DNA of 32,000 nucleotides from an archaeon. GTDB lineage: Archaea; Iainarchaeota; Iainarchaeia; Iainarchaeales; CSSED10-239. The notes under the pieces were generated by a model. That model did no database searches. It saw nothing but the letters and a program-made list of their open reading frames with translations, and had not been told where the DNA came from. Location of the stretch: the NCBI GenBank assembly GCA_035390665.1, contig DAOOUC010000002.1, forward strand, positions 1 through 32,000. Direction: 5' to 3'. Within the stretch, counting starts at the first letter, position 1. Every line of letters begins with the position of its first letter. Positions 4,908 to 29,111 of the stretch are shown here, in pieces. Made by a program: the position numbers and the translations under genes.

Positions 4908-5249
4908 ATGCCTAATCCAAATCAAAAATTTAAGAAACATAAAAGTACAATAACTCCTGGTAAAAGAAATTCAAGAGTAATTGTAAAAAAGAAAACATCA
5001 AATCATAAGTGTGCAGTATGTAAAAGTACATTACATGGTATGCCTCATGGAAAAAGAACATTTGAGGTTAAAAAATTAAGTAAAACAGAAAGAAGACCAG
5101 AGAATTTATTGTCAAGTGTTTTATGTCCAAAATGTAGACAAATTGCATATCAAGAAGCAGTAATGTTAAAGAATAATATTAAGCAAGAAAAAGATTTAGA
5201 TTTAAGATATTTAAAATATATAAAAATGATAATGAAAAAAATTGAGTGA
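4908..5249 (+). CDS. rpl34e: 50S ribosomal protein L34e
   Basis: TPGKRNSRVIVKKKTSNHKCAVCKSTLHGMPHGK...CPKC zinc-ribbon-like pattern typical of L34e. GGTGA SD 7 nt upstream. Confidence 0.85.
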   Translation: MPNPNQKFKKHKSTITPGKRNSRVIVKKKTSNHKCAVCKSTLHGMPHGKRTFEVKKLSKTERRPENLLSSVLCPKCRQIAYQEAVMLKNNIKQEKDLDLRYLKYIKMIMKKIE

Positions 5250-5255
5250 TTTTTT

Positions 5256-5414
5256 ATGGGTTTATTAAAAGTTGGAAAAAAATGCACAATAATGCAAGGA
5301 AGAAATTTTGGTAAAAAAATTATAATAGACAATTTAGATTCTAAATTTGTTTATTATAAAAATAAAGACAAAGTTGAAAAGATAGGAATACAACATGTAT
5401 TTCCTTTAGAATAA
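5256..5414 (+). CDS. rpl14e: 50S ribosomal protein L14e (short, 52 aa); absent from the supplied ORF track
   Basis: My own translation gives MGLLKVGKKCTIMQGRNFGKKIIIDNLDSKFVYYKNKDKVEKIGIQHVFPLE*. The KOW-like VGKKCTIMQGRNFGKK..IID...FV pattern and the H-V-FP-L ending fit L14e. A GAGTGA SD-like motif lies upstream. It holds the expected L34e-(cmk)-L14e position. Confidence 0.75.
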   Translation: MGLLKVGKKCTIMQGRNFGKKIIIDNLDSKFVYYKNKDKVEKIGIQHVFPLE

Positions 5415-5433
5415 TTAAAAATGTGAAATATTT

Positions 5434-6048
5434 ATGGCAAAAAAACAAGATAAAAAATCACAGGAAAATACTCCAAAGCAAAATAAAGGAAAGGCTTCTG
5501 CAGGTAAAGTTTTAAAAGTTGAAAAATCAACTCCACAAACAGATAAATTAAAGATGTCTAAAGCTAAACCAAAGCCAAGTCATTTTAATGCTGCAAAAGA
5601 AGGTGCAGACTTTAAACAAATAGTAAGAATATCAAATAGAGATGTTCCAGGTTATATGACTATTGCAGATGGTTTGACTCTGGTTTATGGAATAGGAAAA
5701 AGATCAAGTAAAATTATAGAAGAAATATTTTTTGAGAAATCAGGAAAAGTAATTACAAAAGTAGGTCATTTATCTGATGAAGATATATTAAAGATCGAAG
5801 ACATAATAGTTAATTTAGACAAATATGTGCCTGCTTGGTTATTAAATAGACCTAAAGAAAGAGACGGGGGCCAAGCACAATATATCATGGCTGATTTAAA
5901 GCTAGTTGAAAGAAAAGAACTTCAAAGACTTGGAAAAATAAAAAGTTATAGAGGTTTAAGATTACAATGGGGTCTAAGAGTAAGAGGCCAAAAAACAAAA
6001 TCAACTGGAAGAAGACATGGTACTATTGGTGTTAACAAAAAGAAATAA
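5434..6048 (+). CDS. rps13: 30S ribosomal protein S13 (uS13) with a ~57-aa Lys-rich N-terminal extension
   Basis: The core from FKQIVRISNRDVPG...GIGKRSS...YRGLRLQWGLRVRGQKTKSTGRR is S13. TGTGA SD-like motif before the 5434 ATG. Confidence 0.9.
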   Translation: MAKKQDKKSQENTPKQNKGKASAGKVLKVEKSTPQTDKLKMSKAKPKPSHFNAAKEGADFKQIVRISNRDVPGYMTIADGLTLVYGIGKRSSKIIEEIFFEKSGKVITKVGHLSDEDILKIEDIIVNLDKYVPAWLLNRPKERDGGQAQYIMADLKLVERKELQRLGKIKSYRGLRLQWGLRVRGQKTKSTGRRHGTIGVNKKK

Positions 6049-6622: not shown

Positions 6623-7012
6623 ATGGCAGCTCCAGGAAAAACAGGTATAGTAAATATTTTTGCTTCAAGAAATAACACCTTGATTGTTTTAACAGATGAA
6701 ACCGGAGCAGAAGTTATTGCAAAATGTTCTGGTGGACAAATGACAAAATCACAACATAAAGAAGGATCACCTTACATTGCAACAAAAATTGCTCAAACAA
6801 TTGCAGATAAAGCTAATGAAAAAGGAATAAAGAATGTTCACGTTAAGATAAGAGCACCAGGTGGAAATTTATATTATAATCCAGGACAAGGTGCAGAATC
6901 ATCATTAAAGACATTAACAAGAGCAGGTCTTAATATTTTAAGTATTTCAAACACTACACCAGTCCCACACGATGGTTGTAGAAAACAAGAAAAGTTTAGA
7001 AAGAAAAATTAA
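6623..7012 (+). CDS. rps11: 30S ribosomal protein S11 (uS11)
   Basis: GIVNIFASRNNTLIVLTDETG...GIKNVHVKIRAPGG...GAESSLKTLTRAGL typical of S11. The start abuts the S4 stop. Confidence 0.92.
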   Translation: MAAPGKTGIVNIFASRNNTLIVLTDETGAEVIAKCSGGQMTKSQHKEGSPYIATKIAQTIADKANEKGIKNVHVKIRAPGGNLYYNPGQGAESSLKTLTRAGLNILSISNTTPVPHDGCRKQEKFRKKN

Positions 7013-7030
7013 GGTTAAAAAGGGAAAAAA

Positions 7031-7768
7031 ATGGTAAAAATAACATATCTTGATAAAGATGATAAAACACATAGGTTTTTAGTTGAAGGTACAGAAATTA
7101 CTAACTTAAATGTTTTAAGAAGAAAGATAGGTTATTGTTTAGACGTGTATGCAATTGATGAAGTTGACTTTTATGAAAACGATTCAGTAATTGTTGATGA
7201 AATGCTTGCAAATAGATTAGCATTATGTCCATTAACAACACCAGAAAATACAACAGGAAAAAAAGTAACTTTAAGTTTAGAAAAAACAGGTCCTTGTACA
7301 GTTTATTCAGGAGATCTTAAATCTAATGATAATGATATTGCACCAGTTTATGACACCATTCCATTAACAAAATTAAAAGAAAATCAAAATTTAAGATTAG
7401 ATGCATATGCAACACAAGGACAAGGAAGGACACACGTTAAATTTTCTCCAGCAATTGTATCTTATTCAATATTACCAGAATTAGAAATATTAAGAGGGTG
7501 CGATAGTTGTGAATTATGTGTAAAAGCTTGCCCAGTTAATTGTATTAAAATGGCATCAGGTAAACCAAAAATGGATGATGTTAATAAATGTATTAATTGT
7601 CAAGCGTGTGTTGATGCATGTCCAAAAAGTTGTTTAAAATTAAATGATACTAATAACTATATATTGTCAATAGAATTAATAGGCCAAATGGAAGTTTCAA
7701 CAATAATAAAATTATTAGATAGATATTCAAAAGAATATTTTATGTTACTTAAAAAGAAATTTAAGTAA
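7031..7768 (+). CDS. rpoD: DNA-directed RNA polymerase subunit D (Rpo3) with an inserted ferredoxin-like 2x CxxCxxCxxxCP domain
   Basis: Position after S11. N-terminal dimerisation-domain pattern (..LRRKIGYCLDVYAIDEVDFYENDSVIVDEMLANRLALCPL). Motifs CDSCELCVKACP and CINCQACVDACP. Confidence 0.88.
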   Translation: MVKITYLDKDDKTHRFLVEGTEITNLNVLRRKIGYCLDVYAIDEVDFYENDSVIVDEMLANRLALCPLTTPENTTGKKVTLSLEKTGPCTVYSGDLKSNDNDIAPVYDTIPLTKLKENQNLRLDAYATQGQGRTHVKFSPAIVSYSILPELEILRGCDSCELCVKACPVNCIKMASGKPKMDDVNKCINCQACVDACPKSCLKLNDTNNYILSIELIGQMEVSTIIKLLDRYSKEYFMLLKKKFK

Positions 7769-7776
7769 TTTGATTT

Positions 7777-7858
7777 GCTGGGGTTCCCGAGCGGTCAAAG
7801 GGGCTGGACTTAAGATCCAGTGCTTAGTGCTTCACAGGTTCGAATCCTGTCCTCAGCA
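7777..7858 (+). tRNA. tRNA-Leu (anticodon UAA), type II with a long variable arm; no encoded CCA
   Basis: Hand-folded cloverleaf. Acceptor GCTGGGG/CCTCAGC (one G-U). D arm CCC-GAGCGGTCAAA-GGG. Anticodon stem CTGGA/TCCAG with loop CTTAAGA. 13-nt variable region. T arm ACAGG-TTCGAAT-CCTGT. Discriminator A. It starts 8 nt after the rpoD stop. Confidence 0.85.
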
Positions 7859-7992
7859 GAGCTGGTTTCGCTCATGTTAAAAAAATCTAAAGATTTTTTG
7901 GCATCCTAAAAACCAACAGGTTTTTATGAGCTCGCACGCAATGTTTGCTAGATCCCAAAGAAAAATAAGAATTGATATTTAAAAATTAAAAA

Positions 7993-8361
7993 ATGATGAA
8001 AATTATGAAAGCATTAGATAAAAAGAATTTACAAACTCAGAAATTAATATCTGAATTATATAGATTATCAAAAGATAAGAAAAAAGAAGTTTATGCAGTA
8101 GTTGCTAAATCTCTAATGGCGCCAACTAGAAAAATAAATGGTGTTAATTTCTTTAAATTACAAAAATCAAGTCACGTTGTTGATGGCGACATAATTGTAA
8201 TTCCAGGAAAATTACTTGCGGTTGGAACATTAGAAAAGAAAATTACAATATATGCAAACGGTTTTTCTGAAAGCGCAAAAGCAAAATTTAAAAATATAAA
8301 ATTATTATCTGATTTGATAAAGGATAATGTAGACTATAAAAAAATTAAATTAATTAAATAA
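7993..8361 (+). CDS. rpl18e: 50S ribosomal protein L18e
   Basis: ..VYAVVAKSLMAPTRKINGVNFFKL...DGDIIVIPGKLLAVGTLEKKITIYANGFSESAKAK matches the L18e pattern. It precedes L13-S9. Start ambiguous among ATGs at 7993, 7996 and 8005. Confidence 0.85.
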   Translation: MMKIMKALDKKNLQTQKLISELYRLSKDKKKEVYAVVAKSLMAPTRKINGVNFFKLQKSSHVVDGDIIVIPGKLLAVGTLEKKITIYANGFSESAKAKFKNIKLLSDLIKDNVDYKKIKLIK

Positions 8362-8377
8362 TTTTTGGTGAATTTTT

Positions 8378-8794
8378 ATGAAAGTAATAAATGCAAAAAA
8401 TAAAATTTTAGGAAGACTTTGTACAGAGATTTCTTCTGCTCTTTTAAGAGAACAAGATAAGATTATTGTTGTTAATGCAAATGATGCAATAATAACTGGT
8501 CAAAAAGACAACATAATGGAAAGATTCCAAGAAAGAACACATAGAAGAGGAAAAGGAAATCCATCAAAGAATGCAAAATATCCAAGATATCCAGATAAGA
8601 TGGTAAAGTTTGCAGTAAGAGGAATGCTTCCAAGAAATGCAAGAGGAACTGCAGCATTAAAGAAATTAAAAGTATTTATTGATGCTCCAGAGGAATATCA
8701 AAAAGACTTACCAAAAGCAGTCGAAGTTCCGAAAGTTAAAGGAATGAAATTAAATGAAATTTGTAAATTATTAGGTGCAAAATTAAAAATTTAA
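8378..8794 (+). CDS. rpl13: 50S ribosomal protein L13 (uL13)
   Basis: VINAKNKILGRLCTEISSALL...MLPRNARG typical of L13. GGTGA SD. Confidence 0.9.
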   Translation: MKVINAKNKILGRLCTEISSALLREQDKIIVVNANDAIITGQKDNIMERFQERTHRRGKGNPSKNAKYPRYPDKMVKFAVRGMLPRNARGTAALKKLKVFIDAPEEYQKDLPKAVEVPKVKGMKLNEICKLLGAKLKI

Positions 8795-8809
8795 ATTGTG
8801 TGAAAAAAT

Positions 8810-9211
8810 ATGGTAAAATATCATTGTGTAAAAGCTTCAAGAAAGAAAGCAATAGGAAGATGTATGGTTAAACCTGGAACAGGTAAAATTCATATTAATG
8901 GTGCTCCATTAGAGGCCTATTATAGCGGTTATAAACAAGGATTAATAAGAGAGCCAATGCTTCTTTTAGACGAAGAATCAAATAAACTTGATTATTTTGT
9001 TAATGTTAAAGGCGGAGGAATAATGTCTCAAGTTCAAACAGTAAGATCTTGTATTGCAAAAGGAATCCTTGCTTTTAATAATAAAGAAAAATTAAAAGAA
9101 AAAATTATGAGATATGATAGACACCTTCTTGTCGATGATGTAAGACAAAAAGAACCTAAGAAACAATTAGGTAAAGGTGCAAGAAAGAAGAAACAACACT
9201 CTAAAAGGTGA
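8810..9211 (+). CDS. rps9: 30S ribosomal protein S9 (uS9)
   Basis: GRCMVKPGTGKIHINGAPLE...VKGGGIMSQVQTVRSCIAKGIL...DDVRQKEPKK.GKGARKKKQHSKR typical of S9. Confidence 0.9.
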   Translation: MVKYHCVKASRKKAIGRCMVKPGTGKIHINGAPLEAYYSGYKQGLIREPMLLLDEESNKLDYFVNVKGGGIMSQVQTVRSCIAKGILAFNNKEKLKEKIMRYDRHLLVDDVRQKEPKKQLGKGARKKKQHSKR

Positions 9212-9218
9212 AATATAT

Positions 9219-9413
9219 ATGATTTGTCCTGTAAGATGCTTTTCCTGTGGTCAGGTTGTTGCTCACAAATATGATGAGTATGTTAAATTAACTACTAAAG
9301 AAAAAAAAAGCCCAGAAGAAGCACTTAATATTTTAGGTATAAAAAAATATTGTTGTAGAAGAATGTATTTAACACATGTTGAAGTCATTGATGACATTAT
9401 GAAATATAATTAA
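9219..9413 (+). CDS. rpoN: DNA-directed RNA polymerase subunit N (Rpo10)
   Basis: MICPVRCFSCGQVVAHKYDEY...YCCRRMYLTHV is the RpoN/Rpb10 zinc motif. AAGGTGA SD at 9205-9211. The track start at 9177 lies inside S9 and is rejected. Confidence 0.9.
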   Translation: MICPVRCFSCGQVVAHKYDEYVKLTTKEKKSPEEALNILGIKKYCCRRMYLTHVEVIDDIMKYN

Positions 9414-9425
9414 ATGTGAAAAATT

Positions 9426-10289
9426 ATGGATAAGAAAGCAGTAAAAGAAACTCAAGATAAACCACAAAATTCTGGAAGAACATTAGTAAATGTTGATTTA
9501 TATTTAAAAAACGGAATACATATTGGAACTAAATATAAAAACGGGCCAATGAGAAAATTTGTATTTAAGTCAAGAAATGATAAAATCAATGTCATGGATG
9601 TTCAAGGAATCGATAAAAGAATAAAGATGTCTGTTGATTTTATTTCAAAATATGAACCACAAGATGTTGTATTTATTTCAAGAAAGAAATATGCACTTCC
9701 AGGGGTTAAGATTTTAGAACAAGCATTTGGTTATAAGTCTAAGTTAAATAGATTTATTCCAGGAACTTTTACAAATCCTGAATCAGAACACTTTATTGAA
9801 CCTAAATTAGTTTTTATTGCAGATCCTAATGTTGATAGACAAGCAATTATTGAAAGCACAAAAGCAAATATTCCAGTAATTGCTCTTTGTACAACTTCAA
9901 GTAATACAAGGAATGTTGATTTTATTATTCCTTATAACAATAAAGGAAGAAAATCAGTTGCTTTGTATTTTTGGATATTAATTAGAGAGCTTGAATTAAG
10001 AAACGGAGTTATTAAATCAGATAAAGACTTTGCATACACAATTGATGACTTAGTATATAATTCAGAAAATGGAGAAAAAGAAGTAGATGAAGAAAATGTT
10101 GTTTCAAGAAAAAGAGTTAGAAAAGTAAGTTCTAAAACACCAACAAGAAGACCAACAACAGCAAGAAAACCAACAGACGCTCCAAGAAGACCATACACAA
10201 GAAGAACACCAATTACAACACCAGCAGCAACAACACCTGTTGCAACAGAAACAGCAGCAGAAACTCCAAAAGTTGAAGAAAAAGTATAA
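9426..10289 (+). CDS. rps2: 30S ribosomal protein S2 (uS2) with a ~60-aa Pro/Thr/Arg-rich C-terminal tail
   Basis: LYLKNGIHIGTKYKNGPMRKFVFKSRNDKINVMDV...PVIALCTTSSNTRNVDFIIPYNNKGRKSVAL is the uS2 core. Confidence 0.9.
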   Translation: MDKKAVKETQDKPQNSGRTLVNVDLYLKNGIHIGTKYKNGPMRKFVFKSRNDKINVMDVQGIDKRIKMSVDFISKYEPQDVVFISRKKYALPGVKILEQAFGYKSKLNRFIPGTFTNPESEHFIEPKLVFIADPNVDRQAIIESTKANIPVIALCTTSSNTRNVDFIIPYNNKGRKSVALYFWILIRELELRNGVIKSDKDFAYTIDDLVYNSENGEKEVDEENVVSRKRVRKVSSKTPTRRPTTARKPTDAPRRPYTRRTPITTPAATTPVATETAAETPKVEEKV

Positions 10290-11115: not shown

Positions 11116-11125
11116 TTTAAATATA
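11116..11125 (+). promoter_or_regulatory. TATA box TTTAAATATA with an A-rich BRE-like upstream flank, for the small pilin gene
   Basis: AAAAAGC-TTTAAATATA ends 22 nt before the ATG and no SD is present, so the mRNA is probably leaderless. The same TTTAAATATA decamer recurs at 14336 and 25496. Confidence 0.45.
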
Positions 11126-11146
11126 TTTGTAGCTTTAAGACTATTT

Positions 11147-11464
11147 ATGTTTAAATTTAAGAGATTAAATTCTAAAGGGCAAGGCACTCTTGAGATGTTA
11201 ATAATACTTGGAATATTAATTCTTGGAGCAGTTATTTTTTCAATGATCTATATTGGGAATATAAGAAAAGAAAATAAAGTAAATAAATCAGAAGACACCT
11301 CTGTTTCAGACTTTAATTCTTCACTATACACTTATGAAGTTCCTGCACAAACTGGTTTTAATTTTAATTTTGAAGATGCCCTAATTTCTATTAGTTTATT
11401 ATCCTTAATTGGAATGTTTAGGCCAATTCCTATTTTTAAGATAATCAACCAGAAAGTAATATAA
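11147..11464 (+). CDS. Small type IV pilin-like protein (class III signal peptide, QxSxE/DUF361-like)
   Basis: MFKFKRLNSKG|QGTLEMLIILGILILGAVIF has a basic N-terminus, a K-G cleavage context, Gln at +1, Glu at +5 and a hydrophobic helix. Confidence 0.65.
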   Translation: MFKFKRLNSKGQGTLEMLIILGILILGAVIFSMIYIGNIRKENKVNKSEDTSVSDFNSSLYTYEVPAQTGFNFNFEDALISISLLSLIGMFRPIPIFKIINQKVI

Positions 11465-11487
11465 ATATTCTTATCTTTAAATTAATA

Positions 11488-14325
11488 ATGAAAAGAAATA
11501 TTTATTTATTACTATTAATTAGTTTAATTCTATTTGTAAGTGTTGTTTATGCAAAAGAAAGCACTGTAGAAGAATCACAAATAGAAGAAGGCAATTTAGA
11601 CTTTTACAAATATCCAGATGTATTTTATCCACCAGAAGAAGAACTTGCAAAGCAAGGCATGACTTTAGAAAGTTACAAGCAAGCATTAAAGCGAAGCGCG
11701 CCAAAGAATCGAAACTCAAGTGTCAACAACATTTGGGGCACATGTCCAACAACTGGAACAGTAAAGATTCCAGTGTTGCTTGTAAAATTTTCTGACAAAA
11801 ACATCACAACTTACAATTTATCAGATATTAATAATTATTTTAATTCACAAGACATCAATTCTAATTTTATAAGTGTGAGCAAATACTATAATATGCAATC
11901 ATATGGAACTCTTAATTTTGTCTTCGATGTTTACGATTGGACAACCATGCCACAAACTTTTGCTTACTATTCAGCAAATAATGTTACCGAATATCAATTA
12001 CCAATTGATGCGTATACTACTTTCAATCCATCTGTAGATTTTGCACAATATGATAACGATAATGATGGCAGAATTGATGGTGCAGTTATAATTTATCCAG
12101 ATATTGGAAAAACTACCTCGTTAGGAATTTGGCCACAAACACGAATCTTAAAAGCAGATTTTGATTATTTATTTGATAACAAATATTTAGGAAATACTTC
12201 GTTAGTTTCTGAAAGAAAAAGTGACACTTCCAATTATTTTGCAACAGTAATAGCAATACACGAGCTTGCACACATTCTTGGACTTCCGGATTTATATTCT
12301 TTAAATCCGCAAGGAACTTTTGATGAAGGACCAATTTATCAAATGTCTATGATGATATTTAAAGATTATACGTCAACAACAAATCATTGTTTAAATAAAC
12401 CAATTAATCTTGATGTTTGGTCAAGATATTTTTTAGGTTGGATAACTCCAAAAGAGTTGAATACTTTTGATGATAAAAATCAAACTTTAAGAAGTGTAAA
12501 TTATTATCCTGATGCTGTAATATTAAAAAATAATAATCTTTTAGATAGAGAATATTTTATAATTGAAAATAGACAGAGAGACTCAAATGTATCTAATTTA
12601 GATAAATGCCTGTTTTCTAATTCTTCGCCGTACAATATCGGAGGTTTTGCAATTTATCATGTTGATGAGAATAAAATTGAAGCCCATTATCCAAATATAA
12701 ATGGCAATGTTAATTGGGATCCAGATGGTAATTATTATGATGATACAACCAGGCCAGGAATAACTTATGAGAAAAATTATGTTACTTCTTTAAATTCATT
12801 TACAATACAAGTTGCAGATTTATATTATTATCAAAACACCCTTCCCGGAATTAGGGAGTATTTTGATGAAAACCATCATTTAAGACCAGGATATACAACA
12901 TTTGATATGACAACAAAATCATATTCAGGAAATCCAAATCCATTAATTAGATTCCAAGCATGGTCTGGGCCAACAGATAATATTAAAACGGCAACAATAT
13001 TGATTGCAGAAGATACAATTACTCCAATAATCGATTACAATAGTGGAACTTATCCAGAAGGAACGGAGTTTGTTATTTCTACGACAACTCCAGATTCAAT
13101 AATTTATTATACAACTGATGGATCAACTCCAAATTTTAATTCTCCCCAAATAGAAAGTGGCTCTGCAATAACATTGCCTGTTGGAACAATAACATTAAAA
13201 GCAATGGCGAAAGGGGAAGATTATTATAAAAGTGAAATTATTACCAGAACATACACAATAACCGGGACAGTTGCTAATCCACAAGCAACACCAGCAAGTG
13301 GTTTTGTAGATTATGGTACCCAAGTTAGTTTAAGCACAACAACTGATGGAGCAACAATAAGATATATTCTAGATGGAAGCGAACCAACAGAGAGTAGTTC
13401 AATTTATAGTTCTCCAATAACCATAACACAAGACACAATAATAAAAGCAAGAGCATTTAAAGAAAATTGGCAACCAAGCGATATAGTTGAATTTAACTAT
13501 ACAGTAAATGTAGTTGTTGCACCTGTTGCTTCACAAGAATCAGGAGTATTAGATTTTAGAACTCCAGTTACTTTAAGTACTACAACAACTGGAGCAACAA
13601 TAAGATATACAATAGATGGAACAGAACCAACAGCAACTTCACCAATATATACTTATCCAATATATGTTGTAAGGCCAATTACATTAAAAGCAAAAACATT
13701 TAAGACAGGACAAGAACCAAGTGATACATCAAGTTATGATTATCAAGTAAAATTATCAAATCCTAAATTTAATATTGATTCAGGAAATTATCCATTTACT
13801 ACTAAAATAATTTTAACATCAGATGTTCCAGGAGTACAAATATATTATACAACAGATGGATCTGATCCTAATGATGGACAATTATATACTGCTCCATTAA
13901 GATTATTAGAAGATACACAACTAAGAGTAATATCAAAAAGAATAGATTATGTTGATAGTGATATTATACAAAAAGATTATAGCATATCTCATCAAGAACA
14001 ACAAGTTCCAACACTATTAATAAATCCAAGAACCCCGAGAGCTTATGAAAATTTTGATATAACATATATAACAGAAAGACATTGGGAAGACGATATTAAT
14101 TTTTCAATAAATAATATGAATGGTTGTACTTTTAATTTAAGACATCCATTGCTATATAATGATGGCCATTATAGTTATTATATTTTTGAAAACAATAGAT
14201 GTATAAGAAGACAACAAAGAAGATTAACTTTTGTTGCAAGTAATCAGAACGATTTAGAAAGAGTAGATACAGAAATAACAATACTAGATTCTGGAATAAC
14301 AGCAATTGCTGTTGGACGAGAATGA
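11488..14325 (+). CDS. Secreted M6/immune-inhibitor-A-like zinc metalloprotease with four C-terminal CHB_HEX_C-like repeats
   Basis: Sec signal MKRNIYLLLLISLILFVSVVYA. The IPVLLVKFSD beta-strand motif and HELAHILGLPDLY (HExxHxxGxPDxY, nt 12259-12297) are typical of M6 peptidases. Four ~80-aa repeats carry the YTTDGS.P / IRYT.DG.EPT signature. Confidence 0.75.
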   Translation: MKRNIYLLLLISLILFVSVVYAKESTVEESQIEEGNLDFYKYPDVFYPPEEELAKQGMTLESYKQALKRSAPKNRNSSVNNIWGTCPTTGTVKIPVLLVKFSDKNITTYNLSDINNYFNSQDINSNFISVSKYYNMQSYGTLNFVFDVYDWTTMPQTFAYYSANNVTEYQLPIDAYTTFNPSVDFAQYDNDNDGRIDGAVIIYPDIGKTTSLGIWPQTRILKADFDYLFDNKYLGNTSLVSERKSDTSNYFATVIAIHELAHILGLPDLYSLNPQGTFDEGPIYQMSMMIFKDYTSTTNHCLNKPINLDVWSRYFLGWITPKELNTFDDKNQTLRSVNYYPDAVILKNNNLLDREYFIIENRQRDSNVSNLDKCLFSNSSPYNIGGFAIYHVDENKIEAHYPNINGNVNWDPDGNYYDDTTRPGITYEKNYVTSLNSFTIQVADLYYYQNTLPGIREYFDENHHLRPGYTTFDMTTKSYSGNPNPLIRFQAWSGPTDNIKTATILIAEDTITPIIDYNSGTYPEGTEFVISTTTPDSIIYYTTDGSTPNFNSPQIESGSAITLPVGTITLKAMAKGEDYYKSEIITRTYTITGTVANPQATPASGFVDYGTQVSLSTTTDGATIRYILDGSEPTESSSIYSSPITITQDTIIKARAFKENWQPSDIVEFNYTVNVVVAPVASQESGVLDFRTPVTLSTTTTGATIRYTIDGTEPTATSPIYTYPIYVVRPITLKAKTFKTGQEPSDTSSYDYQVKLSNPKFNIDSGNYPFTTKIILTSDVPGVQIYYTTDGSDPNDGQLYTAPLRLLEDTQLRVISKRIDYVDSDIIQKDYSISHQEQQVPTLLINPRTPRAYENFDITYITERHWEDDINFSINNMNGCTFNLRHPLLYNDGHYSYYIFENNRCIRRQQRRLTFVASNQNDLERVDTEITILDSGITAIAVGRE
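13018..13986 (+). repeat. Four tandem ~240-nt coding repeats (chitobiase/hexosaminidase C-terminal-like domains) inside the protease gene
   Basis: Repeat units start near 13018, 13261, 13507 and 13750. Units 2 and 3 share DNA identity, including a 19-nt run ggagcaacaataagatata. Confidence 0.7.
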
Positions 14326-14335
14326 TACGAAAAGA

Positions 14336-14345
14336 TTTAAATATA
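14336..14345 (+). promoter_or_regulatory. TATA box TTTAAATATA with a GAAAAGA BRE-like flank, for the pilin-signal adhesin gene
   Basis: Same decamer as at 11116. It lies 46 nt before the ATG, with a TGTGA SD-like motif in between. Confidence 0.45.
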
Positions 14346-14390
14346 CTAATAATGTATATTTAGATATATATTTAGAAATGTGATTAATAA

Positions 14391-16139
14391 ATGTTTAAAT
14401 CAAAAAAAGGACAAATTGCTTTAGAAGTATTAGTAATATTTGGTGTTTTAGTTATCGGTTCAATAATTTTTGGACTATTTTATATGAATAATGTTAAAGA
14501 CATTTTAGTTGAAGGACCAGGAACTAAACAAGATAAGAATGGCGGCGGAGATGTTTATGATGATTTAGAAGGTTCTTTAATATACAATGAAGAACAACAG
14601 ATTGGATCTAGTTCTCACGGTATAACCGGAGGTAGCGGAGGTTCTAGTGGGACAGGAGGAACAGACGACCCAGAAGACCCACCAGTTCCATATTGTGGAG
14701 ATGGGGAGTGTAATGGAACAGAAACCACAATTAGTTGTCCACAAGATTGTACAGCAGGATATTTCTTTGGAAGTTTGGAATTAAGTATATTACCAGAAGA
14801 TATAGCTTATACTACAGATAAAATTACAATTAATGTAACATTTGAAAGTGACGCGCAATCTTCTCAAATATCACAAATTAATATAAAAAAATACAATTTA
14901 GATGATTATGCTTATTATGATACAATAGATTGTGGATTAATGGATTATGATAATAATTATACTTATTTAAATGTAGGAGAATTATTGCCATTACAACCAG
15001 GATATTTAACAGGTTCTTTTGATTTTATTTGTAATCAATCAGGATACTATGAATTTACTTTTTCTATAAATACAGGAGAAGACACTATAACTAATTATAT
15101 AAATAAAGAAATCGTAGAACCAGAGCAACCATTAGAATTTATTTCAGTCTGGGATACAGATTATACTGGTTCTGGACTTACAAAAAATAATGAAATCTTA
15201 CTTCCTTTAATTAATAGTGGAAATTATGATTTTTATGTAGATTGGGGAGATGGGGAAATAACGCACATTACAAATAATGATAGCAAAACAGTGCTTTATG
15301 CATTTTCTGGTGTTGACTACGATGGTGTAGCAAAACACGAATATATTCGCCCAGGAGAATATATTGTTACAATAACAGGGACAATAGAAGGATTTACTTT
15401 TGTAAGACCAGATTTTATGGGTGGCGTTCCAGTTGATGCAATAAAATTAAAAGAAATTTCACAATGGGGGCCTTTAAGATTAGGAAGTCAAGGACAATAT
15501 TTTAAAAGTGCACAAAATTTAGTAATAACTGCAACAGATTTATTAGATACCAGTGATGTAACTGATATGTCTTACATGTTTTCAGAATGTACATTAACTG
15601 ATGTTCCAAGGATAAGCGAATGGGACACCTCAAACGTAACAGATATGAGCCGTATGTTTTATTATTCACCTAATTTCAATCAGCCACTATCATTTGATAC
15701 TTCAAATGTAAGAGATATGAGTCACATGTTTTATTATGCGACAAAGTTTAATTCTGTAATTGATTTTGATACTTCAAATGTTGTGAATATGCAATCTATG
15801 TTTGAAGGCGCTAGAAAATTTAATCAGCCACTATCATTTAATACTTCAAATGTAACAGATATGAGTTATATGTTTTATGCTGCTGAAGATTTTAATTCAT
15901 CTATAAATTTTAATACATCAAGTGTTACCAATATGGCCAACATGTTTAATTTTGCACGGAATTTTAATCAACCATTAAACTTTGATACTTCAAATGTAAC
16001 CAATATGGACGGGATGTTTTATTTTGCAGAGAATTTTGATCAAAACATAAGTAATTGGAATGTAAATTATGTACTCTCATGGGTCTATATGTTTGAGGGC
16101 TGCCCAATACGAAATGAGTATAAACCACAGTTTAGATAG
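14391..16139 (+). CDS. Pilin-signal (class III) protein fused to a Gly/Ser linker, a Cys-rich module and eight DUF285/BspA-like repeats; putative pilus-displayed adhesin
   Basis: MFKSKKG|QIALEVLVIFGVLVIGSIIF has Gln +1 and Glu +5. A GGSGGSSGTGGT linker and YCGDGECNGTETTISCPQDC follow. FISVWDTDYTG...YDFYVDWGDGE precedes 24-aa repeats of the form DTSNVTDMSxMFYxAxxFNQPLSF. Confidence 0.75.
   Translation: MFKSKKGQIALEVLVIFGVLVIGSIIFGLFYMNNVKDILVEGPGTKQDKNGGGDVYDDLEGSLIYNEEQQIGSSSHGITGGSGGSSGTGGTDDPEDPPVPYCGDGECNGTETTISCPQDCTAGYFFGSLELSILPEDIAYTTDKITINVTFESDAQSSQISQINIKKYNLDDYAYYDTIDCGLMDYDNNYTYLNVGELLPLQPGYLTGSFDFICNQSGYYEFTFSINTGEDTITNYINKEIVEPEQPLEFISVWDTDYTGSGLTKNNEILLPLINSGNYDFYVDWGDGEITHITNNDSKTVLYAFSGVDYDGVAKHEYIRPGEYIVTITGTIEGFTFVRPDFMGGVPVDAIKLKEISQWGPLRLGSQGQYFKSAQNLVITATDLLDTSDVTDMSYMFSECTLTDVPRISEWDTSNVTDMSRMFYYSPNFNQPLSFDTSNVRDMSHMFYYATKFNSVIDFDTSNVVNMQSMFEGARKFNQPLSFNTSNVTDMSYMFYAAEDFNSSINFNTSSVTNMANMFNFARNFNQPLNFDTSNVTNMDGMFYFAENFDQNISNWNVNYVLSWVYMFEGCPIRNEYKPQFR
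15546..16110 (+). repeat. Eight tandem 72-nt (24-codon) coding repeats, with 34-nt near-identical DNA copies 144 nt apart
   Basis: caatcagccactatcatttgatacttcaaatgta (15677-15710) versus taatcagccactatcatttaatacttcaaatgta (15821-15854). tttgatacttcaaatgt recurs at about 15693, 15765 and 15981. Confidence 0.8.
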
Positions 16140-16140
16140 T

Positions 16141-16584
16141 TTATATTTTTTCTCTTTTTATTTTTCCTAATTTTAGTATTTGCTTAGATAATGGATCTCC
16201 GTATTCTTTAAAGTAATAGACTTCTTTAAACCCAAGTTCCACTAAAAACCTAGAACAAATAGTACAAGGGGAATAACTACAATATAGTGTTGCATCTTTA
16301 AGGTCAATACCCTTCTTTAAAGCATTAAGAATAGCCCTTTGCTCAGCACAAAGCCCAGTACATAGCTCATTTCTTTGCCCTGGCCTCATTTTAAAATACT
16401 CTTTAGCACAACCAATAACAGAACAAGGCGGAATAGTTGAGCTGTTACCATTATACCCAGAAGATAGGATTTTTCCATTTTTAACAATAACTGCCCCAAT
16501 TTGTTTTCTTAAACAAAGTGATAGTTTTTCTTGTTTTTTAAGTTCTTTAAGTATTTCTGTTGATACCATGAAAATATCAAACAT
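16141..16584 (-). CDS. Cytidine/deoxycytidylate deaminase family protein (dCMP deaminase-like)
   Basis: Zinc motifs CAEQRAILNA and PCTICSRFL, with the ComEB-like upstream segment GCAKEY...GQRNELC. Convergent with the adhesin gene, stop codons 1 nt apart. Confidence 0.7.
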   Translation of the reverse strand: MFDIFMVSTEILKELKKQEKLSLCLRKQIGAVIVKNGKILSSGYNGNSSTIPPCSVIGCAKEYFKMRPGQRNELCTGLCAEQRAILNALKKGIDLKDATLYCSYSPCTICSRFLVELGFKEVYYFKEYGDPLSKQILKLGKIKREKI

Positions 16585-16650
16585 AAATCTATTTAAAAAG
16601 CTTACTTTAGTATATATTATATATAATATAAAATCTTTTTTCTAAAGAAA

Positions 16651-16685
16651 AAAGCCGATGAAAAAACAAATATTTTGGAGGTTTT
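16651..16685 (+). promoter_or_regulatory. Kink-turn hairpin in the L7Ae 5' UTR that embeds the SD (candidate L7Ae autoregulatory site)
   Basis: C-stem AAAGCC(16651-56)/GGUUUU(16680-85). 3-nt bulge GAU. Tandem sheared G60.A79 and A61.G78. A62.G77. Then four A-U pairs and loop CAAAUA. GGAGG (16677-81) lies on the non-bulged strand and the ATG is at 16690. Confidence 0.6.
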
Positions 16686-16689
16686 AAAT

Positions 16690-17169
16690 ATGGCAGAATT
16701 TGTTAAGTTTTCAGTACCTGAGGATCTTAAGAATCTTCAAGCTGACGTTATTTCAAAAGTTTCTAAATCAGGAAAGATTAAAGTAGGAATTAATGAAGTA
16801 ACAAAAACAATAGAGAGAAATACAGCTAAATTAGTTGTTATTGCTCAAGATATATCACCTGCAGAAATTGTAATGCACGTTCCAATAATCTGTAAGGAAA
16901 AAAGCATACCTTTTACATACGTCTCAACAAGAGAAGAACTTGGAAAGATTTCAGGTATCGGCGCAAAAGCAAGTGCAATAGCAATTGTTGATGAAGGAGT
17001 ATTAAAGAAGGAATTTAGTGCTTTATTATCAAAGATAGAAGAAATTAGTGGAGTTACCGCAAAATCAAAACCAGAAGCAAAAGAGGAAAAGCCAAAAGTA
17101 GCTGATAAAAAACCAGCAGCAGAGAAAAAACCAGTAGCAAAAAAAGAAGTTGCTGAAAAGAAAGAATAA
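16690..17169 (+). CDS. rpl7ae: 50S ribosomal protein L7Ae (k-turn binding) with a Lys/Pro/Ala/Glu-rich C-terminal tail
   Basis: GINEVTKTIERNTAKLVVIAQDISPAEIVMHVPIICKEKSIPFTYVSTREELG is the L7Ae core. ATG at 16690 with a GGAGG SD is preferred over the track TTG at 16675. Confidence 0.9.
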   Translation: MAEFVKFSVPEDLKNLQADVISKVSKSGKIKVGINEVTKTIERNTAKLVVIAQDISPAEIVMHVPIICKEKSIPFTYVSTREELGKISGIGAKASAIAIVDEGVLKKEFSALLSKIEEISGVTAKSKPEAKEEKPKVADKKPAAEKKPVAKKEVAEKKE

Positions 17170-17185
17170 AGGGGGTTGAATATTT

Positions 17186-17395
17186 ATGCCAGAAGAAGGA
17201 GTTCCAGCAGAAATTGTTGAAATTGTTGGAAGAACAGGTTCAAGAGGCGAAGCAACCCAAGTTCTTTGTAGAATTTTAGATGGCTTTGAAAAAGGAAGAA
17301 TTAAGAAAAGAAATGTAAGAGGCCTTGTAAAAAAAGGAGATGTCTTAATCTTAATGAATCCAGAATCTGAAGCAAAGGATATTAGAGGAAGATAA
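17186..17395 (+). CDS. rps28e: 30S ribosomal protein S28e
   Basis: PAEIVEIVGRTGSRGEATQVLCRILDG...RNVRGLVKKGDVLILMNPESEAK typical of S28e. Synteny L7Ae-S28e-L24e. Confidence 0.92.
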   Translation: MPEEGVPAEIVEIVGRTGSRGEATQVLCRILDGFEKGRIKKRNVRGLVKKGDVLILMNPESEAKDIRGR

Positions 17396-17410
17396 AAACG
17401 GTGAAAACAA

Positions 17411-17614
17411 ATGAATTGTACATTTTGTGGTAAGGAAATAAAGAGAGGCACTGGAATTATCTTTGCTAAGAAAGATGGAACAGTAAGTTACTTTTGTTCA
17501 AGTAAATGTAAGAAAAATCAATTAGAAAAAAAATACAAACCATTAAAGACAAGATGGACAGACACATACCACATTGAAAAAACAAGACATCAAAAAAAGC
17601 AAGCTGCTCAATAA
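17411..17614 (+). CDS. rpl24e: 50S ribosomal protein L24e
   Basis: CTFCGKEIKRGTGIIFAKKDGTVSYFCSSKCKKN is the L24e zinc-ribbon N-terminus. GGTGA SD. Confidence 0.92.
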   Translation: MNCTFCGKEIKRGTGIIFAKKDGTVSYFCSSKCKKNQLEKKYKPLKTRWTDTYHIEKTRHQKKQAAQ

Positions 17615-17620
17615 AAGCAC

Positions 17621-17638
17621 TTTCTTTTTTATTTTTTT
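17621..17638 (+). terminator. Oligo-T tract TTTCTTTTTTATTTTTTT after L24e
   Basis: T-runs 7 nt after the stop codon. A TTTTAAAAG promoter-like motif follows, before aIF5B. Confidence 0.5.
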
Positions 17639-17656
17639 AGTTAAAGTTTTAAAAGA

Positions 17657-19411
17657 GTGATAACCATAGTTTATAGACAACCAATAATTACTGTTATGGG
17701 TCATATTGACTCTGGAAAAACAACATTTTTAGACAGAATTAAAGGTACAAGTATTGTAGATAAAGAAGCAGGAAAAATAACACAACACATTGGTGCAACA
17801 GAAGTAACAATTGAAACAATAAATAAATTTAGTGGGCATTTAGTAAAGAAATATAATTTCGAACTAATGATTCCTGGATTATTATTTATAGACACACCAG
17901 GACATAATGCTTTTGATAATCTCAGAGAAAGAGGGGGTTCTTTAGCTGACTTGGTAGTCTTAGTAATGGATATTAATAAAGGATTACAGGTTCAAGATAT
18001 TCAAACAATTAATATTTTGAAAATGTATAAGGTCCCTTTTATTGTAGTTGCAAACAAGATAGATTTAGTTTCTGGATTTAACAGAGACGATAAAGACATT
18101 TTAGTTTGTCTAAACAATCAATCAAAAAATGTTTCAGAAAAATTAGAAGAATTATTATATAGAATTGTTGGGCAATTATATGATAAAGGCTTTGCTGCTG
18201 AAAGATTTGATAGAGTTAATGATTTTACAAAACAGATTGCAATAATTCCTGCAAATGTTTCAAATGATTTAGGTCTTCCAGAAAGCATTTTGTTTTTATC
18301 AGTATTAAGTCAAAAGTTTTTAGGGAAGAAACTAACAATAGAAGATAATGATTACATGCAAGGGGCAGTTCTTGAAGTTGGAGAACTAAAAGGAATTGGT
18401 TCAACTGCAGATGTCATTGTTTATCAAGGACAATTGAAAGTAAAAGATGAAATTTGCTTTCCAACAAGAAGCGGGCTAAAATGCTCAAAAATAAAAGCAT
18501 TATTAAAGCCAAACTTTATGACTGCAGTAGATAAAAAATGCGCTTATGAAAAAATTGAAAGTGTAAGTGCAGCAGCAGGAATAAAAATTGTGGCTCCAGA
18601 GATTGCAGATTGTCTTCCAGGAGCAGTAATTGTCTCAGCAGAAGATAAAGTAGCTATTGAAAATTTAAAAAATAAAGCATATGCTTGTTTAGTAAAAGGA
18701 AGCACAGGTGCTTTTGTAAAAGCAGACACTTTGGGGTCTCTTGAAGCATTGCACAAATTGTTGGACAAAGAATGTGTTGCTATCGCCAGTTCAGATATAG
18801 GCGATTTTACAAATAGAGATCTTTTAGAGTTAAAGATATTACATGAAAAAAATAAAGAACAAGGAGTATTGTTTTTATTTAATGTTAAAATTAATCAAGA
18901 GTTTTTAGATGAGATAGAGAAGCTGAAAATCCCTATATTTAAAAACAATATCATATATAAATTAATTGAGGACTACCAAGAATGGTTATCCAAATTAAAA
19001 AAGCAAGAAAAAGATAAATTACTAAAGGAAATAATTTATCCATGTAGTTTTAAAGTACTTCCAAATTTTATTTTTAGAAGTTGTAAACCAGCAGTTGTTG
19101 GTGTAAGAATTCTAGAAGGACGTTTAGTTGTTGGTTCAAACCTTGAATTAAATGGAAATAAAATTGGAGAAGTTGAAGGCATACAATCAGAAGGAAAAGC
19201 AATAGATGTTGCAACAGAGGAATCTGAAGTTGCAGTTTCTATTAGAGATGCAACCTATCTTAAAGACTTTAAGGAAGGAGACATCTTAAAAGTAAGTTTA
19301 ACTCTTGAAAATATTTCAAATCTAGAAAAGTTAGAAGGAGACTTAAGTTCAAGAGAGCAAGAGTTAATAATTCAAGCAAAAAATGAAATTTATAAAAAAC
19401 AAAATCAATAA
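17657..19411 (+). CDS. infB: Translation initiation factor aIF5B (IF2 family GTPase)
   Basis: G motifs GHIDSGKTTFLD, DTPGH and NKID. 584 aa. Probable GTG start at 17657 (N-terminus uncertain). Confidence 0.9.
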   Translation: MITIVYRQPIITVMGHIDSGKTTFLDRIKGTSIVDKEAGKITQHIGATEVTIETINKFSGHLVKKYNFELMIPGLLFIDTPGHNAFDNLRERGGSLADLVVLVMDINKGLQVQDIQTINILKMYKVPFIVVANKIDLVSGFNRDDKDILVCLNNQSKNVSEKLEELLYRIVGQLYDKGFAAERFDRVNDFTKQIAIIPANVSNDLGLPESILFLSVLSQKFLGKKLTIEDNDYMQGAVLEVGELKGIGSTADVIVYQGQLKVKDEICFPTRSGLKCSKIKALLKPNFMTAVDKKCAYEKIESVSAAAGIKIVAPEIADCLPGAVIVSAEDKVAIENLKNKAYACLVKGSTGAFVKADTLGSLEALHKLLDKECVAIASSDIGDFTNRDLLELKILHEKNKEQGVLFLFNVKINQEFLDEIEKLKIPIFKNNIIYKLIEDYQEWLSKLKKQEKDKLLKEIIYPCSFKVLPNFIFRSCKPAVVGVRILEGRLVVGSNLELNGNKIGEVEGIQSEGKAIDVATEESEVAVSIRDATYLKDFKEGDILKVSLTLENISNLEKLEGDLSSREQELIIQAKNEIYKKQNQ

Positions 19412-22926: not shown

Positions 22927-23466
22927 ATGCAATTCATACCAGAAGATTTTCTTCTAGATGTTTTTCTTTTTCTAATTCCTTTTTATTTTGTTTTTTTATT
23001 TGATAGAGTTACTAATATTAAATTAGCATTTTATACTCTTGGATTAAAGTCAATTAAATTTAAAGAACTTTTAAAAAATAGTTTAACTATCTTTTTACTT
23101 TTGTTTTTTTTAAGTTACCTTCTTGGTTTTTTTTCTGTTTTTTTTAATGTTTCTGATTTAGAGGTTGTTGGTAAAGAGATTTTAAATTTTCCATTTTCTG
23201 TGGTTATTTATCTTTTTATAATAAGGGTATTTTTAGAAGAATGGTTCTTTAGAGGTTTCTTGGTTCCAAGAGTTGGAATTGTATTTTCTAGTTTGATTTT
23301 TGCAATTGGCCATCTTTCTTATGGCTCAATAATAGAAGTTCTTGGTGCTTTTGTTTTAGGTGTTTTCTTGGCAAGCACTTACAATAAAACAAAAAATCTT
23401 TGGCCTAACATTATTGCACACACACTATATAATCTTATTATTTACTTATTTCTTTTAATTGCCTAA
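22927..23466 (+). CDS. CPBP-family (CAAX/Abi) intramembrane metalloprotease
   Basis: Polytopic membrane protein with EEWFFRGFL (EExxxR), FAIGH and HTLYN motifs. Confidence 0.85.
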   Translation: MQFIPEDFLLDVFLFLIPFYFVFLFDRVTNIKLAFYTLGLKSIKFKELLKNSLTIFLLLFFLSYLLGFFSVFFNVSDLEVVGKEILNFPFSVVIYLFIIRVFLEEWFFRGFLVPRVGIVFSSLIFAIGHLSYGSIIEVLGAFVLGVFLASTYNKTKNLWPNIIAHTLYNLIIYLFLLIA

Positions 23467-28500: not shown

Positions 28501-29111
28501 AATTCTTTTCTGTTACTCTTAAAATTACTAATTCAGGTACAACAAGCAAGCAAATAACAATTATGGAAGAAATTCCAAAATCTTTTAGTACAAGTATAAA
28601 AAATCTTTCATTTACAGAGCAAATAGATATTTTATTAGCAGATCCAATAATAAAATATAGTGTAGAAATACCTGCAGGTCAAACAAAAGAAATTACATAT
28701 AGATTAATGACACCAATAACTGATGTGGATTCTATAACAAAATATAACACCATAAATAAAAGCTTCGTTGCTCCAGTAATATTAAGCGGGGAAATTCAAA
28801 AAGAAAAATTTAATATTAAAAAACCAGTTAATACAAATTTGTTTATTTATCTAATCTCTATTGTTGTTTTATTTATAATAATATTATTAATACTTAATGC
28901 AATTACAACCTTTAAAAATAAACAAGTAAAAATTGAAATAAAAAAAGATTCAAAAACAGAAATGTCTGATTATTTAGGAAATATAAAACAGGAAAATGTA
29001 AAAAATGAAGAATTAGAAGAAACAGCAAAGATTGTGGATGAAAAAAAACAATCTGCAGATAAATTCCAAGAGAATTATGATTATATTCTTTCAGCAATAA
29101 AAAAAAGATAA
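25551..29111 (+). CDS. Large (1186 aa) type I membrane-anchored surface protein, S-layer/adhesin-like, with Ig/Fn3-like modules
   Basis: Signal peptide MIKKIIIFLMLIIFSANVFA. Many N-x-S/T sequons. Recurring domain-boundary motifs D.(T/V)KP(T/E) and DTTAP. Fn3-like segments ending in VD.AGN.S. C-terminal TM LFIYLISIVVLFIIILLILNAI (about nt 28836-28913) plus a charged ~85-aa tail. Confidence 0.7.
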   Translation: MIKKIIIFLMLIIFSANVFAYTTNTINITSSYANSSGNINFTGTATGELNEQLQLNVSSGGDGVGIDFNVTIVSGNFSGSFNIAIDGESSSGTVPTIKTNSFDTIRLKDKQNSDKNDTIIVDSVKPTNSAALTISVLGDNYLNYYSGSINVSYVPGTLSDSGSSGISNHIITVVPVTEINNYLSSTRKFINASTDNNKTINSLSPVIPDGNYFVVIDANDLAGNYSLSDSVLATKKNVYFDNTKPEISAVLIGTTEKTIDTNKIYIPNTSFILTILLEDSSGIEQTSSLTVIRPDALPRYSNYDATNGFVISSTDIGSGWEDGDIFRVSIDANDNVNNRYTYDFNIIIDTTKPTTPNKNTTTIEDLDKNVTITWAKDASTDVGSELKEYRVYKSTTTFTTITNQTLVCTTGTTTYTCKDTDEKNLDEVYYYGLVGVDNAGNISDSNTQSIWTGPECDIEINDGNEYTNLSSVDINISYSDDVNLVAFSCNGTSFSSYQELDEDDDEASKTFTITSGNGCNSDEDEKTIYARIKTTDEDDPRTTICSAEIYYDTTAPNIPTNIKAITQANGSIKLSWDDSEDENTDSYVTYRVYYSLTNNVTSTSSYFEVEDNTYTHNPNQDTNVYYKLSAIDEAGNQSSLSATITGVAKKIGADLTISITPSNTDANILYVGSGIKTIKYISDESLVGTPQVSVKQGTDSFVTIITTYNNSNKTGQGEFNFTKSGNGTIKIIATNNNNEISTSELSFTIDINAPTFDYNYSDSNGTFLFNLKDYSSDIHRAQYLLDDSEEICLRNKTDSNFNCIFDSTGTADGNHLVSIIVYDRALNITKKETSIVIDNVDEDQILSTTLKLELDVNIEKTKDNLELFEALNLLKELDSSIKTKFELAKADKSDGDQLFGQSKFLEAKEKYLLVKDSLIEIDNNLPKIEIINTTETDAIYDENSTVPQGLIMDSNAITDTINLYKTKDIKIIRNFDVIKIENHKFFSVTLKITNSGTTSKQITIMEEIPKSFSTSIKNLSFTEQIDILLADPIIKYSVEIPAGQTKEITYRLMTPITDVDSITKYNTINKSFVAPVILSGEIQKEKFNIKKPVNTNLFIYLISIVVLFIIILLILNAITTFKNKQVKIEIKKDSKTEMSDYLGNIKQENVKNEELEETAKIVDEKKQSADKFQENYDYILSAIKKR

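Follow-up and report, generated by a model that had tools for sequence, protein, structure and literature searches.

The gene at positions 14391 to 16139 (+ strand) of contig DAOOUC010000002.1, within the 32,000-nucleotide stretch analysed here (the window), comes from a DPANN archaeon related to Diapherotrites and encodes a 582-residue protein, hereafter the target. Its product is probably an archaeal modular type IV pilin-like protein of the Epd, class III-signal kind, a reading to which we give a probability of about 0.6. As in modular pilins, a pilin module is joined through a linker to an additional module that is not specific to pili; the pilin module has no globular head, and the additional module ends in a DUF285 repeat domain. 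The modules of the gene, all on the + strand, are as follows.

14391..16139, whole gene, a listed open reading frame with an ATG start, encoding the 582-residue class III-signal/DUF285 modular surface protein
14391..14411, leader MFKSKKG, seven residues, basic and Gly-ended, with predicted prepilin-peptidase cleavage after G7 (family conservation)
14412..14489, hydrophobic helix of the mature protein, Q8 to N33, with Glu at +5 (AlphaFold2 model, conservation, PF04021 alignment)
14490..14687, disordered Gly/Ser/Asp/Glu-rich tether with the conserved short motif DVYDDLEGSLIY (model confidence, composition, relatives)
14688..14756, four-cysteine module PYCGDGECNGTETTISCPQDC, Cys 102, 107, 116 and 120
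14757..15125, beta-sandwich (Ig-like) domain 1 (AlphaFold2 strands 126-242)
15126..15404, PKD-like beta-sandwich, FISVWDT...VDWGDG (AlphaFold2 strands 250-335)
15405..16136, DUF285/PARCEL solenoid resembling leucine-rich repeats (LRR), predicted N-cap plus eight repeats of about 24 residues, the repeats from nt 15546 (PF03382, TIGR02167, AlphaFold2)

The class III signal and its family

The target begins MFKSKKG/QIALEVLVIFGVLVIGSIIFGLFYMN, where the slash marks the predicted cleavage site. Gln at +1 and Glu at +5 are followed by a hydrophobic stretch of about 26 residues, predicted as a helix (QIALEVLVIFGVLVIGSIIFGLFY). In Methanococcus maripaludis, the substrates of the prepilin peptidase EppA have Gly-ended leaders of 5-13 residues with Gln at +1 and Glu at +5 (PMC3875500). 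A FlaFind-like pattern without Gly at +2 picked out the target gene alone, and a looser motif scan also recovered a 105-residue neighbour. On the target itself, PF04021 aligned over its full profile (residues 5-30) and scored 16.3 bits (E=0.0094), short of the gathering threshold of 23.7. TIGR04205, the model of an archaeosortase D/PIP-CTERM-associated class III protein, was not reached (17.7 bits against 65) and matched over the N-terminal helix only. Taken singly, then, the N-terminus of this one protein is suggestive of a class III signal.

The prediction of an Epd/EppA-type class III (prepilin) signal becomes solid because of evidence at the level of the family: a profile that gathers 130 clusters, conservation across 132 sequences and PF04021 matches in 43 of 115 members. 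In seven close relatives of 47-65% identity the first 70 residues are nearly unchanged as modules downstream are gained and lost. When a profile built on residues 1-75 was run against 1.84 billion representative proteins, it retrieved the 130 clusters at E<=0.001, with every match at the extreme N-terminus of proteins that range from 54 to 1805 residues in length. A word-indexed search with the same N-terminal profile gave one match only, E-values against 5.8 billion sequences being harsh for 75 residues.

Conservation was counted in 132 sequences, made up of 125 of the profile-search matches and the seven close relatives. Their leaders are mostly 5-11 residues long. Around the cleavage site, Lys occupies -2 in 117 and Gly or Ala occupies -1 in 130; Gln at +1 and Glu at +5 are present in all 132, an invariance that is partly built in, as the columns of the query profile were already invariant at both positions. 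Ser or Ala stands at +3 in 125 sequences, and G+11, G+16, F+20 and Y+24 are likewise conserved along the helix. Neither the strict N-terminal position nor this helix residue pattern is imposed by the search. The N-terminus had earlier been described as a QxSxE signal, and the family conservation upholds the Q+1/E+5 part of that description; at +3 the target has Ala, making its motif QxAxE, a variant shared by 37 of the 132 against 88 with Ser. PF04021 was matched at E<=0.01 by 43 of 115 family members (best 2.7e-7), and two members are named UPF0333 by JGI.

From the helix to the repeats

The region behind the helix is best seen in an AlphaFold2 model of the whole protein, built on a 60-sequence alignment, whose mean predicted local distance difference test score (pLDDT) is 84.4. 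The model predicts a helix at residues 5-32 (pLDDT about 90), disorder at 36-93 (pLDDT below 50), the small Cys module, a beta-sandwich at 126-242 (pLDDT about 85-95), a PKD-like sandwich at 250-335 and a solenoid that begins near residue 350 and runs to the C-terminus (pLDDT 96-98). Modelled alone, residues 340-582 reach a pLDDT of 95.4. A Foldseek search of the whole model against the PDB returned generic tandem beta-sandwiches (RbmA, SdrG, complement MG domains) and was uninformative on the solenoid. With residues 340-582 as query, every top neighbour was an LRR protein, at weak similarity (E 6e-3 to 0.1, TM-score 0.3-0.43); among them were the Nogo receptor, LRRC8, the TSH receptor, the BspA-like 4h09 and TpLRR. 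Because these top neighbours are all LRR proteins, "LRR-like solenoid" is a reasonable label for the modelled DUF285 part. A sequence search of the PDB with the target found no relative.

The DUF285 assignment itself is secure, with a PF03382 match of E=5.5e-58 (194.4 bits against a cutoff of 25) and a TIGR02167 PARCEL-repeat score of 74.5 bits against 30. The repeat pattern is far beyond chance. Repeats start at residues 386, 412, 436, 460, 484, 508, 532 and 557, with a first spacing of 26 residues and later ones of mostly 24; seven are clear and the eighth is a degenerate C-terminal cap. In the DNA, Tandem Repeats Finder reports a 72-nt period in 5.2 copies. The Mbov_0838 PARCEL lipoprotein model NF045896 was not reached (123.7 against 500 bits), the likeness being one of shared repeats only.

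The tether comprises about 65 residues, is kept in close relatives and includes the linker GGSGGSSGTGGT at residues 80-91. A motif resembling D-[FY]-x-x-D-L at +44 to +48, read in the target as DVYDDLEGSL, is present in 33 of 130 family members where shuffled sequences give about 6. This motif may complete a minimal pilin module of some 60 residues, the size of Epd/Flp pilins; mature pilins of M. maripaludis have 54-63 residues, and its major pilin 62 once cleaved (PMC3875500). The four cysteines of the next module lie at nt 14694-14750. A CG[DN]GxC motif is found in 29 of 125 N-terminal relatives, and the module is variably present among close relatives, thus behaving as a swappable unit. Beta-sandwich domain 1 is missing from one relative (P0003). 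The PKD-like module, with VWDT...VDWGDGE at residues 253-288, is conserved across 60 diverse DUF285 proteins and precedes the DUF285 repeats in most family members; the relatives' copies give weak PKD_4/PKD matches and that of the target a weak PamR/RbmA-like match.

Most of what the preliminary description had read from the letters is therefore borne out: the open reading frame lies exactly as noted, encoding 582 residues on the + strand; the flexible linker, the four cysteines and the WDT..WGDGE region are all present, the linker in a stretch of pLDDT below 50; the eight DTSNVTxMxxMF repeats are present, with the qualifications on spacing and on the last copy given above; the hidden Markov models agree with the predicted DUF285 domain, and the structural model gives a helix, disordered tether, beta-sandwiches and LRR-like solenoid in that order.

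Archaeal surface proteins are often N-glycosylated. Twelve N-x-S/T sequons lie between residues 108 and 552, several of them within the DTSNVT repeat core, and on this count the ectodomain may be heavily N-glycosylated.

One N-terminus, many cargoes

The N-terminal module also occurs by itself. It makes up 45 proteins shorter than 200 residues, and the stand-alone members with a class III N-terminus include proteins of 54-105 residues. Behind the same N-terminus in larger proteins stand CHB_HEX_C/Fn3_assoc domains (21 of 115), GLUG (18), Big_7, M26_N, PKD, DUF285, RCC1 and LamG, with CHB_HEX_C the commonest cargo in the target's lineage. Short pilins lie beside cargo proteins in the window and in three of the loci fetched for comparison (L015, L016 and L018). 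The representative in the window is encoded two genes upstream of the target:

11147..11464, + strand, stand-alone class III-signal protein of 105 residues, candidate filament-forming pilin (motif scan; PF04021, 22.5 bits)

This protein belongs to the same N-terminal family (P0176) and reads MFKFKRLNSKG/QGTLEMLIILGILILGAVIFSMIY...; its PF04021 score (22.5 bits, E=1e-4) falls barely under the gathering threshold. A second hydrophobic stretch, ALISISLLSLIGMF, lies near its C-terminus. Its gene is not present in L005, the locus that holds the target's 48%-identical orthologue in synteny.

Fusions of a class III signal to DUF285 repeats recur. In L010 a protein of 1047 residues has the same module order and about 26 repeats, and in L015 a protein of 509 residues combines CHB_HEX_C with DUF285 and adjoins a pilin of 79 residues. 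In P0055, which NCBI assigns to Nanoarchaeia, DUF285 follows an N-terminus that is hydrophobic and, by visual inspection only, of another pilin-like type; P0055 may be another archaeal pilin-type DUF285 fusion.

Pilus or membrane display

If the target is a modular pilin, a prepilin peptidase of the EppA or PibD type would cut between G7 and Q8 at the cytoplasmic face and release MFKSKKG, and a type IV filament machine whose genes lie elsewhere on the genome would pull the helix out of the membrane. The helix would then pack among short pilins such as the 105-residue neighbour, at the filament tip or thinly spread along the shaft at low stoichiometry. The tether would let an ectodomain of about 50 kDa hang off the filament, where the DUF285 solenoid could bind a ligand carried by a surface or by a host cell. 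We infer cleavage, filament incorporation and ligand binding for the target, and consider its incorporation into a pilus, or capping of one, plausible.

Several observations weigh against this reading. No secretion ATPase, TadC/ArlJ platform or prepilin peptidase is encoded in the window or within 10 kb in the relatives inspected. Crude motif scans for secretion-ATPase Walker boxes and for the prepilin-peptidase GxGD found nothing in any fetched locus, and the gene contexts of seven further family members held no machinery genes either. Pilin genes scattered away from the machinery are normal in archaea (PMC3875500), and an Epd-like "system 1" filament machinery is listed among the systems of DPANN archaea (bioRxiv 10.64898/2026.04.22.720090), neither of which is evidence regarding the target's own genome. 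The target's scores also lie under both curated cutoffs (16.3 against 23.7 bits for PF04021, 17.7 against 65 for TIGR04205), and the invariance of Q+1 and E+5 owes something to the query. A globular pilin head is lacking and the chain beyond the helix is predicted to be disordered, so that the helix would be the only assembly interface, perhaps together with the short motif of the tether.

That the fusion itself is an artefact, a pilin gene joined to an unrelated DUF285 gene by assembly or gene calling, is scarcely credible. The sequence does come from metagenome assemblies, and misassembly is common in repeat-rich genes, but the identical 582-residue frame is found on independently assembled contigs from JGI (two samples), ENA and Logan, at least four assemblies in all, which speaks strongly against an assembly artefact. 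The module order is moreover kept in orthologues at 48-65% identity, and the architecture is seen again in the separate lineages of L010 and L015. It is very improbable, too, that the N-terminus is a Sec signal or an uncleaved signal anchor whose likeness to a prepilin arose by chance, for all that the target's PF04021 score is below threshold. A Sec-type signal is unlikely, given a hydrophobic stretch of about 26 residues that runs into MNNVKDILVEGPG without a small-x-small site of the Ala-x-Ala type; typical Sec signals are carried by the neighbouring protease (...VYA/KE) and by a 1186-residue protein of the window (...VFA/YT). A plain anchor would offer no reason for the invariance or near-invariance of K-2, G/A-1, Q+1 and E+5 across 132 sequences, nor for the PF04021 matches of 43 of 115 relatives.

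Display at the membrane, in the manner of a bindosome, deserves more weight and is possible, if on balance unlikely. Here the signal would be cleaved and the helix would remain anchored in the cytoplasmic membrane, or else in a pseudopilus of minimal length, with the stalk and the long tether pushing the DUF285 domain through the cell envelope, and the class III signal would be the lineage's general route of surface anchoring, not a means of building adhesive pili. The class III sugar-binding proteins of Sulfolobales offer a precedent, being processed by PibD and dependent on a filament-type machine without forming long pili, and such class III binding proteins are now reported to be widespread (bioRxiv 10.64898/2026.04.22.720090). 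The very varied cargo behind the same N-terminus, found on more than 80 large proteins, is hard to fit into one filament, and the missing pilin head, the tether of about 65 residues and the distance of the genes from any pilus machinery in the inspected loci all agree with tethered display. Yet the invariant Glu+5 and the G/G/F/Y helix pattern are characteristic of filament-packing helices, stand-alone proteins of 54-105 residues, the size of Epd/Flp major pilins, adjoin the cargo proteins, and bacterial modular pilins with bulky cargo do enter pili (PMC8179133).

Relation to known systems

The closest likeness of the N-terminus is to the Epd pilins of M. maripaludis, which are substrates of EppA and belong to PF04021 (formerly DUF361, UPF0333). 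Shared features are the short, basic, Gly-ended leader, Gln at +1, Glu at +5, the long hydrophobic helix, very short stand-alone members (54-105 residues) without a globular head, and genes away from the machinery. In contrast to those pilins, the target has a stalk and DUF285 cargo that add about 480 residues, falls short of the PF04021 threshold and belongs to a DPANN archaeon, not a methanogen. The succession of N-terminal pilin module, linker and binding module is that of the bacterial modular type IV pilins, such as PilB and PilC of Streptococcus sanguinis. These carry the N-methylation motif IPR012902, usually a small globular pilin domain and a short linker (PMC8179133), whereas the target has an archaeal, PF04021-type signal, a pilin module that is essentially helix only and a long, disordered linker.

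Sulfolobales bindosome substrates (GlcS, AraS, TreS), thought to be displayed by a type IV filament machine (bioRxiv 10.64898/2026.04.22.720090), resemble the target in having a large non-pilin ectodomain behind a class III signal and genes away from the assembly machinery. The target differs from them in its cargo, an LRR-like repeat on a beta-sandwich stalk and not a solute-binding protein, and in having no ABC-transporter linkage; the Sulfolobus signals, for their part, are without the Q+1/E+5 signature (PMC3875500). With the DUF285/PARCEL/BspA family the target shares repeats of 24-26 residues (DTSNVTxMxxMF) behind an FxxxWxT...VDWGDG module, a domain order found in thousands of bacterial and archaeal proteins. 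In most members of that family a Sec or lipoprotein signal stands at the N-terminus, and the C-terminus is often a sorting domain of the type IX secretion system or another kind; the target differs in its class III signal.

The preliminary description had regarded the repeats as bacterial in type and the architecture as unusual for an archaeon, and neither view holds. DUF285 is common in archaea. The best DUF285 matches include proteins of Loki-, Thor- and Heimdallarchaeota and of Nanoarchaeia, because of which the statement of the 2010 PARCEL paper that archaeal genomes have none (PMC2996958) is outdated; for the non-repeat part, the closest relatives that carry a name come from Nanoarchaeia and Asgard archaea. 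In a neighbour-joining tree of the non-repeat module, a rough one without bootstrap and with mostly unnamed leaves, the family stands beside Nanoarchaeia, Loki-, Thor- and Heimdallarchaeota and apart from clusters of Bacteroidota and Planctomycetota. A recent bacterial origin of the DUF285 part is thus unsupported, as the tree groups the family with named archaeal sequences. Nor is the design new in kind, because Raynaud et al. (2021) already list bacterial modular pilins that pair IPR012902 with IPR005046, and further archaeal fusions exist in L010 and L015. Their catalogue sorts more than 1,200 modular pilins of bacteria into 264 architectures; in its Dataset S1, IPR005046 occurs 36 times, and the IPR012902-IPR005046 pairing includes nine proteins with one DUF285, four with three, and more (PMC8179133). 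IPR005046 corresponds to DUF285 (PMC2996958). The target is a new archaeal example of the modular pilins catalogued in bacteria. Large archaeal proteins with class III signals were also known already (bioRxiv 10.64898/2026.04.22.720090).

Genomic surroundings

The start codon of the target gene is the most upstream one possible, and the NCBI entry for the protein reads "BspA family leucine-rich repeat surface protein [archaeon]". The G+C content is about 29%. Around the gene lie archaeal information-processing genes (SecY, many ribosomal proteins, RpoD, L7Ae, S28e, L24e, aIF5B, S6e, aIF2-gamma, Rpb7, Spt4 and S24e) and a geranylgeranyl reductase-like gene. Among SecY proteins with an informative name, those most similar carry the label Candidatus Diapherotrites, the best at 77% identity and several more at about 50-54%, which points to a DPANN archaeon. 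Between the 105-residue pilin gene and the target lies a protease gene:

11488..14325, + strand, M6-like (InhA-like) metalloprotease of 945 residues with a Sec signal and four CHB_HEX_C/Fn3_assoc domains (TIGR03296, PF13290)

The protease scores 123.6 bits against the TIGR03296 cutoff of 110.8, and E=1e-62 with PF13290. The protease-DUF285 gene pair is syntenic in L005, which lies on a 429-kb contig. Identical TTTAAATATA boxes lie 46 nt 5' of the target start codon (14336..14345) and 21 nt 5' of that of the short pilin (11117..11126), with a shorter TTTAAAT box just 5' of the protease gene (about 11474..11483). These boxes may be separate archaeal TATA-type promoters, one per gene.

Elsewhere in the window, 25551..29111 (+) encodes a protein of 1186 residues with a Sec signal (...ANVFA/YT) and numerous predicted repeats rich in beta structure; one transmembrane segment lies at its C-terminal end, together with a cytoplasmic tail that is charged. 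Its Pfam result is a weak GOLD-domain match only. Relatives keep this protein at the corresponding site, and it may be an S-layer or envelope protein. The gene at 22927..23466 (+) encodes a 179-residue Rce1-like intramembrane protease of the CPBP family (PF02517, E=1.8e-16), which is not a prepilin peptidase and whose synteny downstream of S27e is conserved.

Genes of the class III-signal family lie at recurring sites in L012, L015, L016 and L023 (near position 10000 of each locus) and in L010, L018 and L022, with a different cargo each time. One such site is flanked by a KaiC-like ATPase (PF06745) in divergent orientation and by ScpA/ScpB/Lon; another lies downstream of a group formed by L10/P1, Hef helicase, ERCC4, S8e, a small membrane protein of exosortase-like type (PF09721) and a surface protein some 975 residues long. 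In L010, a multi-pass membrane protein of 185 residues (5234..5791, +) is the counterpart of the exosortase/archaeosortase-like gene product of L022. Nearby is a Sec-signal surface protein of 986 residues (6948..9908, +), whose C-terminus, ...SPLSGFLTLGNAGLIILGLIILVVLVIIFRRR, resembles a PGF-CTERM-type sorting signal. The same locus encodes two large paralogues of 923 and 913 residues (13181..15952 and 15986..18727, both +). Both open with MNSKAQMEVIILIGVF..., in which the class III motif is shortened and Glu stands at +3 rather than +5; one contains a CGNGFCETGESCSSCPSDC module and the other long Gly-rich repeat runs (...VGGLxG...).

Implications

The target extends a bacterial design principle to archaea and reveals no new mechanism. 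What gives it added interest is the apparent reuse, across a whole DPANN lineage, of a single minimal pilin handle in front of many surface domains. Members of the DPANN archaea are believed to need contact with other cells, and pilus-driven episymbiosis has been described for Saccharibacteria. A broader proposal, which we put forward tentatively and regard as rather unlikely, is that in this Diapherotrites-related lineage one minimal Epd-type pilin module serves as a universal handle for a large, fast-reshuffled array of adhesin and enzyme domains (among them DUF285, CHB_HEX_C, GLUG, RCC1 and LamG) that form, with pilins of 54-105 residues, heteropolymeric multi-adhesin filaments, the main tool of attachment to host or substrate. 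If true, such filaments would be an archaeal counterpart of the episymbiosis pili of Saccharibacteria.

DPANN genome papers often describe pilus machinery without recognisable pilins (PMC9563170), and the class III family would give one such lineage its candidates for pilins and for adhesins displayed on pili. Current annotation, under which the target is labelled only as a BspA-family LRR protein, misses the signature K-[GA]/Q-x-[SA]-[IL]-E followed by a G/G/F/Y-patterned helix. Together, the signature and the family it defines provide testable targets for work on host attachment.

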